Source: Maridesulfovibrio sp.
Lineage (GTDB): Bacteria; Desulfobacterota; Desulfovibrionia; Desulfovibrionales; Desulfovibrionaceae
Direction: 5' to 3'
DNA: 64,000 nucleotides
NCBI RefSeq assembly: GCF_963678865.1
Contig: NZ_OY787459.1
Coordinates: forward strand, 3,629,381-3,693,380
Shown: in pieces, positions 27,926 through 35,447 of the stretch
How the letters are laid out: each line of letters opens with the position of its first letter
Position numbering within the stretch: position 1 is the first letter of the stretch
Program-made: the position numbers and the translations under genes
Notes under the pieces: generated by a model
Seen by the model: the letters and a program-made list of their open reading frames with translations, nothing else
What the model was told of the DNA's origin: nothing
The model's database searches: none

Positions 27926-28750
27926 ATGGCTGCCAACCGAATTAGCGGTGTTTTTTCTTCAAGTACCGAATCAACTGTAGGAACCGGAACGACCAGCCGT
28001 CAGACCGTGCAGAAAACCTATTGGTTTGTGCAGGAAAAGGATAGTGGTGCTTTGGAAGTGCAGCCCTTGAATAGTAATAATGTTCCTTCCGGTCCGAAAC
28101 TCATGGTCGAGCGCGATAAATTCCTTGATAACTATAACCCTGAGCCGGAGTACTTTATAGAGATTGTCAAGCCGAGCATGGAAGCGCTTGAGGGCAACAT
28201 TAAACGCGGAGAAGGGCACCGCGCAAGCGGTGAAAGCTACAGCGCGGAATATGAATTCGGGCATGCCATTGATATCGATGAAGAGAATGTGCGGGCCAAT
28301 TTCGGCCTCGGGCTGACCTATCTTGAGCGCGGTGAGACCGGGCGGGCGGAGGATGTCTTCCGCAGACTGGTAGGCATCGGGGCTATTTATGAGCCGCAGC
28401 ACAAACATCTTTTTAATGATTTCGGTATCAACCTGCGCCGGAACGGTATGATCGACCAGGCTCTTGAGTATTACCATAAAGCCGAGGAACTCAGTAAGCA
28501 CGATGAGAATCTCTGCCTGAATATTGCCCGGGCTTATTACGAAAAGGGTCAATTTGAGAATTGCATCGAGTATATTAAAAAATCACTGAAGATTAACCCT
28601 GAACTGGAAGAAGCGATCATGTTCTGGGGCTACCTGAAGAACAATGGTTATCTATCTGACGAAGATGATGATCTGAATCTTGATTTTGACGATTTTCAGG
28701 AAAAGCAGGAAAAAGAAGGCCCTATTGCCGGCCTTGAGATTGATTTTTAG
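27926..28750 (+). CDS. tetratricopeptide-repeat protein with an acidic tail
   Basis: TPR-like repeats (NFGLGLTYLERGETGRAEDVF, ALEYYHKAEELS, IARAYYEKGQFENCIEYIKKSLKINP). 274 aa. Confidence 0.72.
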   Translation: MAANRISGVFSSSTESTVGTGTTSRQTVQKTYWFVQEKDSGALEVQPLNSNNVPSGPKLMVERDKFLDNYNPEPEYFIEIVKPSMEALEGNIKRGEGHRASGESYSAEYEFGHAIDIDEENVRANFGLGLTYLERGETGRAEDVFRRLVGIGAIYEPQHKHLFNDFGINLRRNGMIDQALEYYHKAEELSKHDENLCLNIARAYYEKGQFENCIEYIKKSLKINPELEEAIMFWGYLKNNGYLSDEDDDLNLDFDDFQEKQEKEGPIAGLEIDF

Positions 28751-30508: not shown

Positions 30509-30577
30509 GATGCGCTACGCGCGTTTTCGATTTGATTTAGCCCCCGGCGTCCAAAGGACCTAAGGCCCTTTGGAATA
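30509..30577. repeat. nested-palindrome intergenic element, copy E (left half)
   Basis: GATGCGCTACGCGC...GCCCCCGGCGTCC AAAGGACCTAAGGCCCTTTGGAATAC, between the convergent recJ and lipoprotein genes. Confidence 0.75.
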
Positions 30578-30597: not shown

Positions 30598-31428
30598 TTA
30601 ACTCAACCGTTCAATATCAATAAATTCAGTAGTAGCCGTATGGACTTTGAAACGGTGTCCGTTGATCTCGATCAGCGGAGTGCCCAGCGGAATTTCCATG
30701 GTCTGGCGGTTAACCACCTTGGGACGGCTGCCCCCTTCCAGATGGCGGATTTCAAAGAGGATGGTCATTCCTTTTTTGCCCAGAAACCTGATCACGTAGT
30801 GTTGCTCTGAATCGGGCAGGACGTTGGTTCTGACTACTTTTTTGAATCTTAGTTTTTTGGGGTTTGTTTCTGTCTGCACCTTTCTGAATACATTTTTTCT
30901 TTCTGTCGGGAGCAGTATTGTTTTGGAAAGAGTTCCGTCTTCATCCAGCGTACCGTAAAATGAATTCAGCAGAATTGCACCGCCGGTCTGGGGAGAGTCC
31001 ATGAACTCGTATGTTACATTGGAATAGCCGTTCAAGGTCAGGGGCGGGTTCTTATCCCTGGTCAGCAGCGTGATTTTGAAATCTCTCGTGCACTGCATTT
31101 TGGGCAGGGTGATAATCTCTTCATCATACTGCAGGAAGCGCAGAATGTCTGCTCCTGCGGGATAGGAAATTCGCGCTCCGGTATTCATGCTCTGGGAACG
31201 TACCTTACGTACCCTGCGTTGGTCCTGCCGGCGGAGCAGTTTTATATTCAGGCGGACCTCATTCCTGCCCAAGGGTGCTTTTTCCTTTGCTATCTTTGCC
31301 GGAAGGGGCGGAGCAGGGGGTATAATAAGTTTAGGCTGCTGTTTGCAGCCTCCCAGCATGCACACCAATCCGAGAATGAGGATAGGGAGCAGGCGTTGAA
31401 TTTTATGATCCGAAATTATCCAATGCAT
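30598..31428 (-). CDS. hypothetical lipoprotein (last gene of the ATP-grasp/transglutaminase operon)
   Basis: Signal peptide plus lipobox LGGCK. 276 aa. Its ATG at 31428 overlaps the end of the upstream ATP-grasp gene by 26 nt. No family recognised. Confidence 0.68.
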   Translation of the reverse strand: MHWIISDHKIQRLLPILILGLVCMLGGCKQQPKLIIPPAPPLPAKIAKEKAPLGRNEVRLNIKLLRRQDQRRVRKVRSQSMNTGARISYPAGADILRFLQYDEEIITLPKMQCTRDFKITLLTRDKNPPLTLNGYSNVTYEFMDSPQTGGAILLNSFYGTLDEDGTLSKTILLPTERKNVFRKVQTETNPKKLRFKKVVRTNVLPDSEQHYVIRFLGKKGMTILFEIRHLEGGSRPKVVNRQTMEIPLGTPLIEINGHRFKVHTATTEFIDIERLS

Positions 31429-32341
31429 ATTTAATCCGTTGAGTTTCAGTGTGCAGGTCCTTATGAACTCGGTCTATTTCATTCAGCCTGTGTTGCAGGC
31501 CACACTTATTTGCAACCTGAATAGCCAGCCCCGGACGGGCATTGAGTTCAAGGATCAGTGGCCCCAGATTTTTGTCCAGCACAATATCTACGCCGAGATA
31601 GCCAAGACCGGTGACGCTGTAGCCCAGTGCGGCCTGCTTGAGCAGTTCCGGCCAGTCCGGGATGGCAACTCCGGCAATGGGATGCAGGGTGTCAGGATGA
31701 TGGGTGCAGTTGTCGTTTTTCCAGACAGCGCTTGTGGTCATACCTGTACGCATGTCTATTCCACAGCCCATGGCACCCTGATGCAGGTTGGCCTTGCCGT
31801 CTGATTCCCGCGTGGGCAGGCGGAGCATAGCCATGGCCGGGACGCCCTTGTAGACGATGATACGTATATCCGGGACTCCTTGATAAGCGATGTCTTTGAA
31901 GACGGGGGCGAACTGCACGCAGTATTCGACCATAGCTTTGTCCGGCATGCCGCCGAGGCTGTACATTCCGCTGAGTATGTTTGAAATATGGAATGAAATG
32001 ATATCTTCTGCGACAAGAGAATCATCTGGTTTGCGAAAGCGCGGGCCTAGCTTTCCGGTAATGACCAGAATACCGTTTCCTCCGGCTCCACGTGCAGGCT
32101 TGACCACAAACGAATCGTATTTTTCCAGCAGCTGGGGAAGTCTTTTCAGCTCGTGCTGGGCCTGGAATACACCGTAAAGCTCCGGCACATTCAGTCCTGC
32201 GGCCAGAGTCAATTCCTTGGTCGTGATCTTGTCATCTACCAGCGGGTAGAGCCTGCGCGGGTTATTGGGCAGCACGTATGCGCCGTTACGGGCATTGAGA
32301 CCCATGACCCCGAATTTTTTTAGTTTACCGAACCAGCCCAT
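31403..32341 (-). CDS. alpha-L-glutamate ligase-like (RimK-related) ATP-grasp protein
   Basis: MGWFGKLKKFGVMGLNARN...FVVKPARGAGGNGILV...LELNARPGL matches the RimK-related ligase family that accompanies 7TM-transglutaminase proteins. Confidence 0.88.
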   Translation of the reverse strand: MGWFGKLKKFGVMGLNARNGAYVLPNNPRRLYPLVDDKITTKELTLAAGLNVPELYGVFQAQHELKRLPQLLEKYDSFVVKPARGAGGNGILVITGKLGPRFRKPDDSLVAEDIISFHISNILSGMYSLGGMPDKAMVEYCVQFAPVFKDIAYQGVPDIRIIVYKGVPAMAMLRLPTRESDGKANLHQGAMGCGIDMRTGMTTSAVWKNDNCTHHPDTLHPIAGVAIPDWPELLKQAALGYSVTGLGYLGVDIVLDKNLGPLILELNARPGLAIQVANKCGLQHRLNEIDRVHKDLHTETQRIKYALDNFGS

Positions 32342-32342
32342 T

Positions 32343-33908
32343 TTACCCCTCCTTGAGGAAAGCCCGGAAACGGATCAGGTCGAGCAGCCGGAATCCTGTA
32401 TAGCGCCCGATCATCAGAGTCAAGCCTAGCAGTACTAGAAACAGTTCAGGGAATACGAAAATAAGGTGCTCGATAAACAGGTTGCTCATGGCGATGTAGG
32501 CCAGCACAGCCACAGCCATTGAGCCGATACATTGCTGGATTGCTTTCCATGCCCCGAGTTCATCCCACATGATGGAGATACGTTCAATGGTCATGCTTAA
32601 AATTACCATGGGAAACAGGCTGACCGAGACTCCGCGAGGAAAACCCAGTTTGAAACTGATGATACTGATTCCGGCCATGAGCAGCACAACAACGATCAGC
32701 ACACAGGCCAGGCGGGGGACCAGCAGCAGTTTCAGGTGTTCCAGATATAAGCGCACTGCCAGCCCGAGGATGATGACAATGGAAAAAAGACACAGCCCCC
32801 AGAGCAGCTGAGTTTCGCGGAAAGACAGGGCGATAAGTACTGGCATGAATGTACCGAAGGTGGTGATGCCGATCACGTTGCGTAGAAAGACCAGCAGCAG
32901 TACGCCGATGGGAATCAGCAGAATGACCCGGTATGTTGCCTGTGCCTGCACCGGAAGGTTGAACAGGGAAAATTCCAGTATAGTCGGTGCGGTGACGGCA
33001 AGACGGTCAACCACATTTCCCAGTGAGCTGACTGTTGCCGGAACAACTGAAAGGGTAACATTCAGGTTGTTTCCTCCGCTTACTGTTGCCAGAGGAGCGT
33101 TGCCGCGCCACCATGTTACAAAGTTCACCGGGGTGCCGAAAGTTCCTTTGGTCACGTCAAACATGTGCCATGTTTCGTTGTGGTAAAGCTCCAACCAGTG
33201 TTTGATTATCGCGTTGTTTGAGGTGGTAAGGGTTATGCCGTGTACGGACTGGGCCGGAATTCCGGAAAAGTGCAGCAGGCGAACAGCCATGTTCACCGCC
33301 CCCAATGTATTCTTGTTGTCTCGCAGCAGGTATGCTGCATCCTGATTTTGTGACGGCGACATAAGCCGGTTCATGAGTTGGGGGACAAAAGTTTCTATGT
33401 CTGCTGATTCACTTCCCACCTCAGTGATCAGCGAGTTGGCGGCAACCTGTTCCGCTTCAGTAAATTGCGGGTCTCGCAGTCTGGGGATTTCTGTGGGATG
33501 AACCCAGCTTTTTTCTTTGTTGCCCTGTTCCGGCCTCAGGCGGGCGGAATAGAACAGGTCCTGTTTGCCTTTGGCAGAACGTCTGGACCAGATTGCGACG
33601 ATATTATCTGAGTTACGGTTCTGCTGTGTTGTACCGTCTGCGGACTGCAGTACATGCAGCAAACCGTAGTCGTCACCGATGTAATATTCGTCGGTGACAA
33701 TGAATTTCGGCAGGCGGTTCAGGGTTTGCAGACTGACTTTGACCGGACTGCCCGTGGCTTCAAAAGAAACATGGGCTTCCACGTTCCATATTTCAGTCTG
33801 CTCTTCCGCCGTTAGGGGGAATCCGAGCACAAAGGCTTTATAACTGAATATGCCAAGCCCTACGCAGAGGAGTATGGCTACAAGTATTTTTAGCTGAATG
33901 GAATTCAT
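32343..33908 (-). CDS. inactive-transglutaminase-like domain fused to a 7TM module
   Basis: 521 aa: one N-terminal TM helix, a ~300-aa extracytoplasmic domain, then about 7 hydrophobic helices. Its stop lies 1 nt from the ATP-grasp start. This gene triad is a conserved association. Confidence 0.78.
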   Translation of the reverse strand: MNSIQLKILVAILLCVGLGIFSYKAFVLGFPLTAEEQTEIWNVEAHVSFEATGSPVKVSLQTLNRLPKFIVTDEYYIGDDYGLLHVLQSADGTTQQNRNSDNIVAIWSRRSAKGKQDLFYSARLRPEQGNKEKSWVHPTEIPRLRDPQFTEAEQVAANSLITEVGSESADIETFVPQLMNRLMSPSQNQDAAYLLRDNKNTLGAVNMAVRLLHFSGIPAQSVHGITLTTSNNAIIKHWLELYHNETWHMFDVTKGTFGTPVNFVTWWRGNAPLATVSGGNNLNVTLSVVPATVSSLGNVVDRLAVTAPTILEFSLFNLPVQAQATYRVILLIPIGVLLLVFLRNVIGITTFGTFMPVLIALSFRETQLLWGLCLFSIVIILGLAVRLYLEHLKLLLVPRLACVLIVVVLLMAGISIISFKLGFPRGVSVSLFPMVILSMTIERISIMWDELGAWKAIQQCIGSMAVAVLAYIAMSNLFIEHLIFVFPELFLVLLGLTLMIGRYTGFRLLDLIRFRAFLKEG

Positions 33909-33954
33909 GACAAGACTCCCGGAATAAACCGGTTTTTATAACTACTGTAATTTA

Positions 33955-34485
33955 TTATTGGTCTGAAGTGCTGAGTCGGTGGTGGCGTGAAGAGTCAATA
34001 AGAATGCCATGACGTAATTCTTTTCTACCGATGAGCATTTTGTATGAAAAATTGGTCCGGTCGGTCAGGTTGACAAGGGCTTCTAATTTTTGGGGTCCGA
34101 TCTGGAGCTGAACCGGTATAACAGGCCTGCGCTGGTAGCCGTAAGGCCGTTTTTTGATACGGACTATACGGGCATAGGGGCAGGTTATACGCTGGGTTTT
34201 GCCGTGCTGGTCCGTGAGGGTAAAAGAAACCTTTTTGTTGTTTTTATTGATGACAATATCAGTGGCATGCAGTGAAGAACTGTCCGCCCCGGTATCCATT
34301 TTGGCTTCCATGGTGATGGGGGTTTCACGGTCCCATATTTTGATGGAAACATTTTCAATGTATCCGGCAACCACAGGCTGGTTTTGAGGTGTTATTTTCG
34401 GGGAGGCATCCTTTGCTGCGGCTACGCAGGAAGTGCCTGCTGTCAGGCTGATCAAGAGCAGAATTGATATGAAGATGGGGCGCAT
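33955..34485 (-). CDS. retropepsin-like aspartic protease (annotated in databases as 'putative ATP-dependent zinc protease')
   Basis: Signal peptide, then GYIENVSI...MEAKMDTGADSSSLHA, which contains the DTGA aspartyl-protease motif. 176 aa. Confidence 0.78.
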   Translation of the reverse strand: MRPIFISILLLISLTAGTSCVAAAKDASPKITPQNQPVVAGYIENVSIKIWDRETPITMEAKMDTGADSSSLHATDIVINKNNKKVSFTLTDQHGKTQRITCPYARIVRIKKRPYGYQRRPVIPVQLQIGPQKLEALVNLTDRTNFSYKMLIGRKELRHGILIDSSRHHRLSTSDQ

Positions 34486-34693
34486 CGTAATCCTCTGATC
34501 GGCACGGAATCACGTGGCATAAACGGGATTCAGGCAGATTTTGTTCTCAATTTATAGTAAAAAAATTAATAAAAAACCAAACCGACCCCGGCAAATCTCT
34601 GCAACAATAAATAGGAAAGGTCAAGGGTACCCATAGATATTTAATTGTTGTTGACATTTGATTTTTGAATTTGTATTTCTCTTTTTAATAAAA

Positions 34694-34710
34694 ATGAAAA
34701 TCATTTTCAT
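34694..34710. promoter_or_regulatory. Fur-box-like operator
   Basis: ATGAAAATCATTTTCAT is a perfect 8-1-8 palindrome. With its flanks, AATGAAAATCATTTTC matches 14 of 16 positions of the Fur core AATGATAATCATTATC. It ends 20 nt before the DUF4198 start. Confidence 0.6.
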
Positions 34711-34730
34711 AATCAATAAGGAGAATGTTA

Positions 34731-35447
34731 ATGAAAAAAATTGTTCTAGCAATGGCATTTGTCCTGGCATTTACCTCAGTTTGCTCTGCCCACGACATGT
34801 GGCTGGAGAAAAAAGGTCGCAAGGCCCATCTCATGTACGGGCATCCCGGTTCAACGGACTCTTATCCCATAAGCCGTATTACAGCTATGACCGGTATAAA
34901 TGAAAATAATTGGAAAACAGCCTTGGAGCCTGTTTACAACAAGGGGGCTGCCTATGCATGGCTCGATGACGCATACACAATGCTGACTGTCGAGTTTGAC
35001 AACAAGTACTGGTATCACACGGAAGAGGGTGGATGGCAGAATTTTGAATTTCCAAGACAGGTTTGCGGAAAAATTCTTGATGAAGGCCGTTCCTACAAGC
35101 TTTCAAAAACAATTCTCGAGTGGAAACCAGAGATGTCGAAACCCATCGGACAGCGCGCTGAAATAGTACCCCTCAAAGATCCAAGCAAGCTTAAAGAAGG
35201 AGATCTCCTTCCGGTTATGATGTTCTATGAAGGCAAGCCCATGCCCGCAGCCGGTGCCCGCATCTCCACAACATCCGACCGCACGGTTGAGCATCCTGAA
35301 CTGGTCAATCTTAAAAATTCAAAACCTGTAAATGTAAAGATCGGACCAGCCGGGCGCCAGATTATTATTGGTAAATATGAAAAGCGTCTCGATGATACCC
35401 ATCGTGTCTGGTACGCATTTTCCCTTACTTTCAGGACCGGCAAGTAG
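34731..35447 (+). CDS. DUF4198-like periplasmic metal-uptake protein
   Basis: Signal peptide ending CSAHDMWL; mature DUF4198 proteins start with AHxxW. The ATG at 34731 has AAGGAGA 6 nt upstream, and a Fur-box-like palindrome lies just before it. Confidence 0.72.
   Translation: MKKIVLAMAFVLAFTSVCSAHDMWLEKKGRKAHLMYGHPGSTDSYPISRITAMTGINENNWKTALEPVYNKGAAYAWLDDAYTMLTVEFDNKYWYHTEEGGWQNFEFPRQVCGKILDEGRSYKLSKTILEWKPEMSKPIGQRAEIVPLKDPSKLKEGDLLPVMMFYEGKPMPAAGARISTTSDRTVEHPELVNLKNSKPVNVKIGPAGRQIIIGKYEKRLDDTHRVWYAFSLTFRTGK

Follow-up and report, generated by a model that had tools for sequence, protein, structure and literature searches.

Why does a lipoprotein gene overlap the end of a protease-transglutaminase-ligase operon in Maridesulfovibrio? 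The question is raised by a 64,000-nucleotide (nt) stretch of Maridesulfovibrio sp. DNA (contig NZ_OY787459.1, positions 3,629,381 to 3,693,380; hereafter the window), in which four genes follow one another on the minus strand: rloA (33955..34485), for a secreted retropepsin-like aspartic peptidase of 176 amino acids (aa) with a signal peptide and a DTGA motif at D64-A67; rloB (32343..33908), for a 521-aa protein with an N-terminal transmembrane helix, a periplasmic transglutaminase-like domain and a C-terminal seven-transmembrane (7TM) region; rloC (31403..32341), for a cytoplasmic RimK-related ATP-grasp ligase of 312 aa; and a fourth gene, working name rloD (30598..31428), for a 276-aa lipoprotein with its lipobox cysteine at position 28. 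An earlier note on this DNA, made from the sequence alone, had described the same four open reading frames (ORFs), and the spacing it gave, 46 nt between rloA and rloB, 1 nt between rloB and rloC and a 26-nt overlap between rloC and the lipoprotein gene, is exact. On balance we favour the reading that the locus consists of rloABC and a fourth gene inherited with it, whose product is a lipid-anchored, basic, non-enzymatic beta protein with a product-binding or scaffold role. The new part is the clade-restricted lipoprotein gene, which is well supported; rloABC itself is already known.

The triad is almost certainly an rloABC operon, since its genes are adjacent, lie on one strand and keep the order of the known operon, and since profile searches placed all three families named in the earlier note above the Pfam cut-offs: RloA matched PF05618 (E 5e-23), RloB PF14400 (E 2e-45) and PF14402 (E 4e-99), and RloC PF14397 (E 8e-87) as well as TIGR02291 (430 bits against a cut-off of 314). 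The best NCBIfam names for the first two genes are RloA and RloB, at scores under the Pseudomonas-tuned cut-offs. The solved structures closest to RloA are 9g58, 9g59 and 2pma, which agree in length, and 2pma also by name, with the structures of PMC12239564. That study described rloABC of P. aeruginosa PA14 (PA14_41690/41710/41730, equivalent to PA1768-PA1767-PA1766) and presented crystal structures of RloA, a secreted retropepsin dimer that cleaves poly-alpha-glutamate runs of at least 8 residues in vitro (Lormand et al., mBio 2025, PMC12239564). Loss of all three Rlo proteases of Pseudomonas blocks low-salt growth and alters cell shape, biofilm and beta-lactam sensitivity, a phenotype rescued by deletion of rloB or rloC; RloB/RloC activity is thus harmful when the proteases are missing, and the system has a role in osmotic tolerance (PMC12239564). 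The substrate of RloA was concluded to be free or post-translationally added poly-glutamate, and the RloC product and the natural RloA substrate were left unidentified (PMC12239564). The earlier note had regarded the triad as a comparative-genomics prediction with no experimentally settled product or substrate; this still holds for the product of the ligase, but the triad has moved beyond prediction, as structures, cleavage and epistasis have been published for it (PMC12239564).

At the level of individual residues, every sequence-testable defining feature of rloABC is present in the triad except the secondary disulfide. RloA has a signal peptide with a basic start, a hydrophobic core and an A-x-A site, read from the sequence and repeated in the clade members, and its D64-T-G-A active site with the catalytic D64 is intact. 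In an alignment to 9g58 (numbering offset +20, self-consistent at four positions), K62, R106, R109, K111, R113, R120 and R143 of RloA correspond to K46, R92, K95, K97, R99, R114 and R137 of the P. aeruginosa enzyme. Across 13 clade RloA sequences, most poly-glutamate-binding positions are invariant or nearly so, K62, R120 and R143 are invariant, and so are the equivalents of K46, D48, R99, R114 and R137. The cysteine pair that forms the disulfide of periplasmic orthologues was not found in RloA, whose mature domain has one cysteine and carries Gln131 where 9g58 has a Cys; the flap is shorter by about 8 residues than in the Pseudomonas enzymes. RloB is free of cysteine from residue 16 to residue 372, which excludes thiol catalysis by its transglutaminase-like domain; H237 and D251 are retained. 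The ATP-grasp motifs of RloC look intact (K38, K81 and the Gly loop, D158-x-R160, N185, D252 and E265-x-N267), and the predicted placement of the protease in the periplasm and of the ligase in the cytoplasm agrees with the earlier note. RloC scores only 14 bits on the RimK model NF007764 (cut-off 331), and a separate cytoplasmic rimB-rimK pair, whose RimK scores 458 bits, over that cut-off, sits elsewhere in the same genome (C1:1790686-1792080, equivalent to L131:3687-5081); the locus is therefore not rimBK. We found no second secreted RloA in this genome, nor any long ORF in which at least 6 Glu stand in a row.

How firmly is the fourth gene tied to this operon? Nineteen other homologues of the lipoprotein were recovered, at 41-83% identity, and every one whose locus was inspected immediately follows rloC; these loci come from Maridesulfovibrio, Halodesulfovibrio, Desulfovibrio oxyclinae, Desulfobaculum, a Mailhella metagenome-assembled genome and metagenome contigs. 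The flanking genes differ between these, and because the order is kept in other genera with different neighbours, the four-gene arrangement is not a matter of chance. Among 301 Desulfovibrionales genomes, rloB is present in 27 and the lipoprotein gene in 14, in all 14 immediately downstream of rloC, and no case of the lipoprotein without rloABC was found there; the suggestion of the earlier note that the lipoprotein is a lineage-specific addition co-occurring with the triad is thereby borne out. In a phylum sample of 401 genomes, none of the 42 other genomes with rloB has a credible match to the lipoprotein. The weak matches in two of the sampled genomes (G412 and G504) look like an efflux adaptor and a Pal/OmpA protein that were matched via the signal region, and not like homologues. 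The linkage still holds where RloB is only about 44% and the lipoprotein 23% identical.

On a quick RloB tree of 75 rows (13 duplicate or partial rows excluded; branches assessed by the Shimodaira-Hasegawa-like approximate likelihood ratio test, SH-aLRT, only), the lipoprotein is found in 19/19 loci of one clade, within the Desulfovibrionaceae, and in 0/56 others, so that its presence is a single change, on a branch with an SH-aLRT of 96. The closest relatives of the locus are in Maridesulfovibrio genomes, with RloB and RloC 89-93% identical. Of 19 other genomes of the genus, 11 have neither rloB nor the lipoprotein gene and 7 have both in this cassette, and the four genes therefore travel together; setting aside copies of the other RloB clade, the genus has all four genes or none. 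One Maridesulfovibrio genome (G243; L062 and L040/L041) carries two rloABC operons of distant RloB clades (35% and 91% identical to the query), and only the copy of the present clade has the lipoprotein gene.

The junction between rloC and the fourth gene is also conserved. The start codon of the lipoprotein (31426..31428, minus strand), 26 nt before the end of rloC, is an ATG made from the Tyr-Ala codons (TAT GCx) of rloC, and this Tyr codon is TAT in 17/17 core-clade loci, as against 75/157 (48%) of the remaining Tyr codons of these rloC genes. TAT is used there even in two loci that otherwise favour TAC 8:1 and 7:1. Outside the clade, the same rloC position is mostly Phe or Trp, or is encoded by TAC, and two Mailhella-type loci have a different overlap between rloC and the lipoprotein gene. 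The lipoprotein is under purifying selection (Ka/Ks, the ratio of nonsynonymous to synonymous substitution, 0.06-0.12, with Ks above 1). A promoter and terminator scan revealed no minus-strand terminator above chance between rloA and the lipoprotein start. We infer that the lipoprotein gene is co-transcribed with rloABC, and it is likely that the lipoprotein is co-translated with, and functionally tied to, the rlo system.

What the lipoprotein does within that system can be read less directly from the protein. It has no Pfam, NCBIfam or PHROG match, as expected from the earlier note, which had recognised no family. Its lipobox reads LGGC, Cys28 is invariant in 16 aligned relatives, and lipidation is predicted from signal peptide and lipobox. 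The predicted model (pLDDT, the local confidence score, 84; pTM, the global one, 0.56) consists of a signal helix, a Pro-rich linker and two almost all-beta domains joined by long strands. With the whole model, Foldseek returned nothing from the PDB at E<=0.001, the BFVD fold search and the Atlas search restricted to named families gave no match, and the best VIA-wide scores (Z 6.9 to EFF-1 domain I and 6.1 to CcsBA) are at the level common to beta-sandwiches. The insert domain alone (residues 108-198, pLDDT 91) reached a best Z of 4.4 overall, with many weak rows of SH3 fold (Z 3.2-3.9, root-mean-square deviation about 3, about 52 residues aligned). The absence of fold matches is no proof of a new fold. 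No conserved catalytic-type motif or cysteine was found in the mature protein, which carries a charge of +18 here (isoelectric point 10.1), within about the top 5% of the 68 lipobox-pattern ORFs in the genome; all 15 rlo-linked lipoproteins have a net positive charge (+1 to +20), as would be fitting for the binding of an anionic ligand. The C-termini of the family are non-acidic and variable (ERLS, EMIS, TLLR, IIQK; the last residue is S, R, K or N), and in the predicted model the C-terminus of the present lipoprotein forms the final strand of a beta-sheet. RimK extends acidic C-termini, and because that of the lipoprotein is not acidic, it is unlikely to be an acceptor for the ligase. A complex prediction for the periplasmic domain of RloB, the RloA dimer and the lipoprotein scored 0.16 against a mark of 0.32, which is evidence neither way. 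We put forward the specific product-binding or scaffold role only tentatively, as a possibility.

The family also gives a hint of where the gene came from. Among 1.84 billion proteins, the lipoprotein profile found six clusters (at 50% identity). One of these, P0024, is an outlier without rlo linkage and the only distant match of the profile (E 1.7e-4 in 1.8 billion), a lipoprotein encoded beside a P450 gene on a 7-kb contig that has no rlo genes. P0024 in turn matches the phage protein QNL13345.1 (E 5e-8), and that protein matches phrog_1353 (E 1.5e-12); the relatives along this link come from Moraxella, Acinetobacter and Salmonella phages and are cargo genes of temperate phages. QNL13345.1 belongs to phage vB_MaeS-yong1 (L135:4887-5618) and is a member of phrog_1353, a lipoprotein-like cargo family. 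When the lipoprotein profile is compared directly with the phage protein, the score is no better than with shuffled sequences, and the link to phrog_1353 is transitive via P0024 only. An Atlas shape search gave a TM (template-modelling) score of 0.53 to a 190-member cluster of Pseudomonadota hypothetical proteins. The free-standing lipoproteins related to phrog_1353 share with the present one a lipobox, a length of about 250 aa and a colinear beta-strand pattern, but they show no rlo linkage where seen and are uncharacterised. Descent of the lipoprotein from a free-standing lipoprotein family is plausible, not proven.

A rival explanation is that the gene is a passenger, that is, a free-standing lipoprotein gene that landed once behind rloC and has since shared the transcript and regulation of the operon, both answering to envelope stress, with no role in Rlo. 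The free-standing distant relatives, beside a P450 gene or as temperate-phage cargo, and the single origin on the RloB tree fit this explanation; but the lipoprotein gene is never away from rloC and never missing in the 19 clade loci, which span at least five genera and have rearranged flanks, within one genus its gains and losses track those of rloABC, and its start codon is held inside rloC. We consider a passenger unlikely. A role as tether or regulator, in which the lipoprotein would anchor, activate or inhibit the RloA dimer and would not bind polymer, is suggested by the cleavable signal peptide of RloA, which is without a lipobox in the 12 core-clade loci examined, and by the presence of only one secreted RloA in this genome. 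Yet RloA is itself a lipoprotein in two Mailhella-type loci that still have the fourth gene, and is soluble in four loci that lack it (L058, L059, L069, L082); these counter-examples in both directions rule out the lipoprotein as a replacement for a lipid anchor on RloA, and weaken the case for regulation or tethering of the protease, which we consider unlikely. The earlier note had offered the alternative of an accessory or a substrate, and of these the accessory stands: that RloC/RloB glutamylate the lipoprotein and RloA trims it would agree with the poly-glutamate substrate proposed for RloA (PMC12239564), with the lack of a long Glu-run ORF in the genome and with the predicted export and co-translation of the lipoprotein, but is the least likely explanation, given the non-acidic, variable C-termini, the predicted sheet strand formed by the last residues and the many lineages that run the system without the lipoprotein, for which a universal acceptor must be something else.

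Several points count against a dedicated binder or scaffold as well. The clade amounts to one evolutionary gain, so the counts given above are not independent, and because one clade is one event, a functional tie and prolonged hitch-hiking would leave the same linkage; the majority of rloABC loci, the 56 others in the tree and that of P. aeruginosa among them, do without the lipoprotein. In several of the lipoproteins the net charge is barely positive (+1 to +4), and the family has about as many invariant acidic residues as invariant basic ones. In one long-read assembly, a 1-nt deletion in a C-run (L005:8120-8125) frameshifts the lipoprotein gene, probably through a sequencing error, as the near-identical L132 is intact. 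Finally, the product of RloC, and with it any polymer step, is putative in every organism.

With these points in mind, we conclude that the lipoprotein probably serves as an accessory on the envelope side and was taken over from a family of free-standing lipoproteins. In the scheme that we propose for the operon with its fourth gene, modelled on synthase-dependent polymer systems with a periplasmic clean-up hydrolase, cytoplasmic RloC would use ATP to make, at the membrane, a chain or tag of poly-alpha-glutamate, RloB would pass this to the periplasm and hold it on its dead transglutaminase domain, and RloA would trim or clear it, thereby tuning envelope and turgor homeostasis. The fourth gene would have been captured once from its free-standing family and fixed through the start codon inside rloC, and its product would be a non-enzymatic, membrane-anchored (probably outer-membrane) binder or scaffold for the product or for RloA/RloB. 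The boldest form of this scheme, in which Rlo is a Gram-negative machine for the synthesis, export and trimming of poly-alpha-glutamate and the fourth gene encodes its dedicated receptor or scaffold on the outer-membrane side, we regard as doubtful; if it holds, the lipoprotein would offer a first functional way into a lipoprotein fold that is widespread but uncharacterised, and could serve as bait for the RloC product or acceptor. An exported fourth protein locked to rloABC is in any case a candidate binding partner for the question of what RloC makes and where it goes, and through it a lipoprotein family that has no name is connected with a pathway for the first time. The genomes of this clade also have a single secreted protease, so that the redundancy of three proteases, an obstacle to work in Pseudomonas, does not arise. 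These gains have their bounds: the core system is already published, and the fourth gene is narrow in distribution and its role putative.

The genome is assembled as a single 4.35-Mb contig. The GC content of the four-gene block is close to that of the remainder of the window, and the block has a DUF4198 gene running divergently on one side and a recJ-like gene converging on it from the other. Directly after the lipoprotein stop and ahead of recJ lies an 11-bp hairpin on the minus strand (30550..30574; -22.8 kcal/mol, z -2.5), a possible transcript end that is without a U-tract and not conserved in sequence. The promoter and terminator scan did no better than chance, with 11 promoter-like sites for an expected 10.7. 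Upstream of rloA, a minus-strand block with TTGACC (34600..34625) is near-invariant in 6 Maridesulfovibrio loci in which the flanking intergenic DNA differs, and is a candidate promoter element. The rloA leader holds a conserved GAATC ... GATTC inverted repeat (34507-34531), whose spacing varies by 2 nt between species and which could act as an operator or form a hairpin in the RNA. A short way upstream of the DUF4198 gene (34725-35447), a near-palindrome, GAAAATGA-TTTCAT (34694-34712), is kept in six Maridesulfovibrio loci; we take it to be Fur-box-like, which would suit a metal-uptake gene. Between pyrF and recJ, a gene for a tetratricopeptide repeat protein (27926-28750) has a tandem paralogue, about 58-60% identical, in three related loci (L004, L005, L132). 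Among the collected loci, L083, L086-L092, L094, L095 and L098 are mostly gammaproteobacterial rloB-rloC pairs for which no rloA was detected within 4 kb upstream, many of them with a gcvT-like gene downstream; in the other Desulfovibrionales clade (L060, L061, L063-L068, L074, L075), the protease domain of RloA is preceded by a long stalk that is charged or rich in proline; and in L070 and L071 RloA is itself a lipoprotein.

How, then, does this locus compare with known systems? It shares with P. aeruginosa rloABC the gene order, the three domain families, a retropepsin with signal peptide and DTGA motif and basic glutamate-binding residues, a transglutaminase without cysteine fused to 7TM and an ATP-grasp ligase of TIGR02291, but differs from it in the extra overlapping lipoprotein gene, in having one secreted protease rather than three, in the shorter flap (by about 8 residues) and missing disulfide pair of RloA, and in its host, an anaerobic member of the Desulfovibrionaceae. 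RimB-RimK likewise pairs a retropepsin with an ATP-grasp glutamate ligase in poly-glutamate chemistry, but RimB is cytoplasmic, there is no RloB, and the ligase described here falls far under the RimK cut-off. In Shewanella vesiculosa HM13, loss of the RloB homologue hm2192 leads to more and less uniform vesicles (PMC12096838). That protein has in common with RloB an inactive transglutaminase fused to 7TM and is likewise linked to the envelope by its phenotype, but it was studied as a single gene, and an accessory lipoprotein was not described (PMC12096838), whereas the Maridesulfovibrio operon carries one whose start codon lies within rloC.

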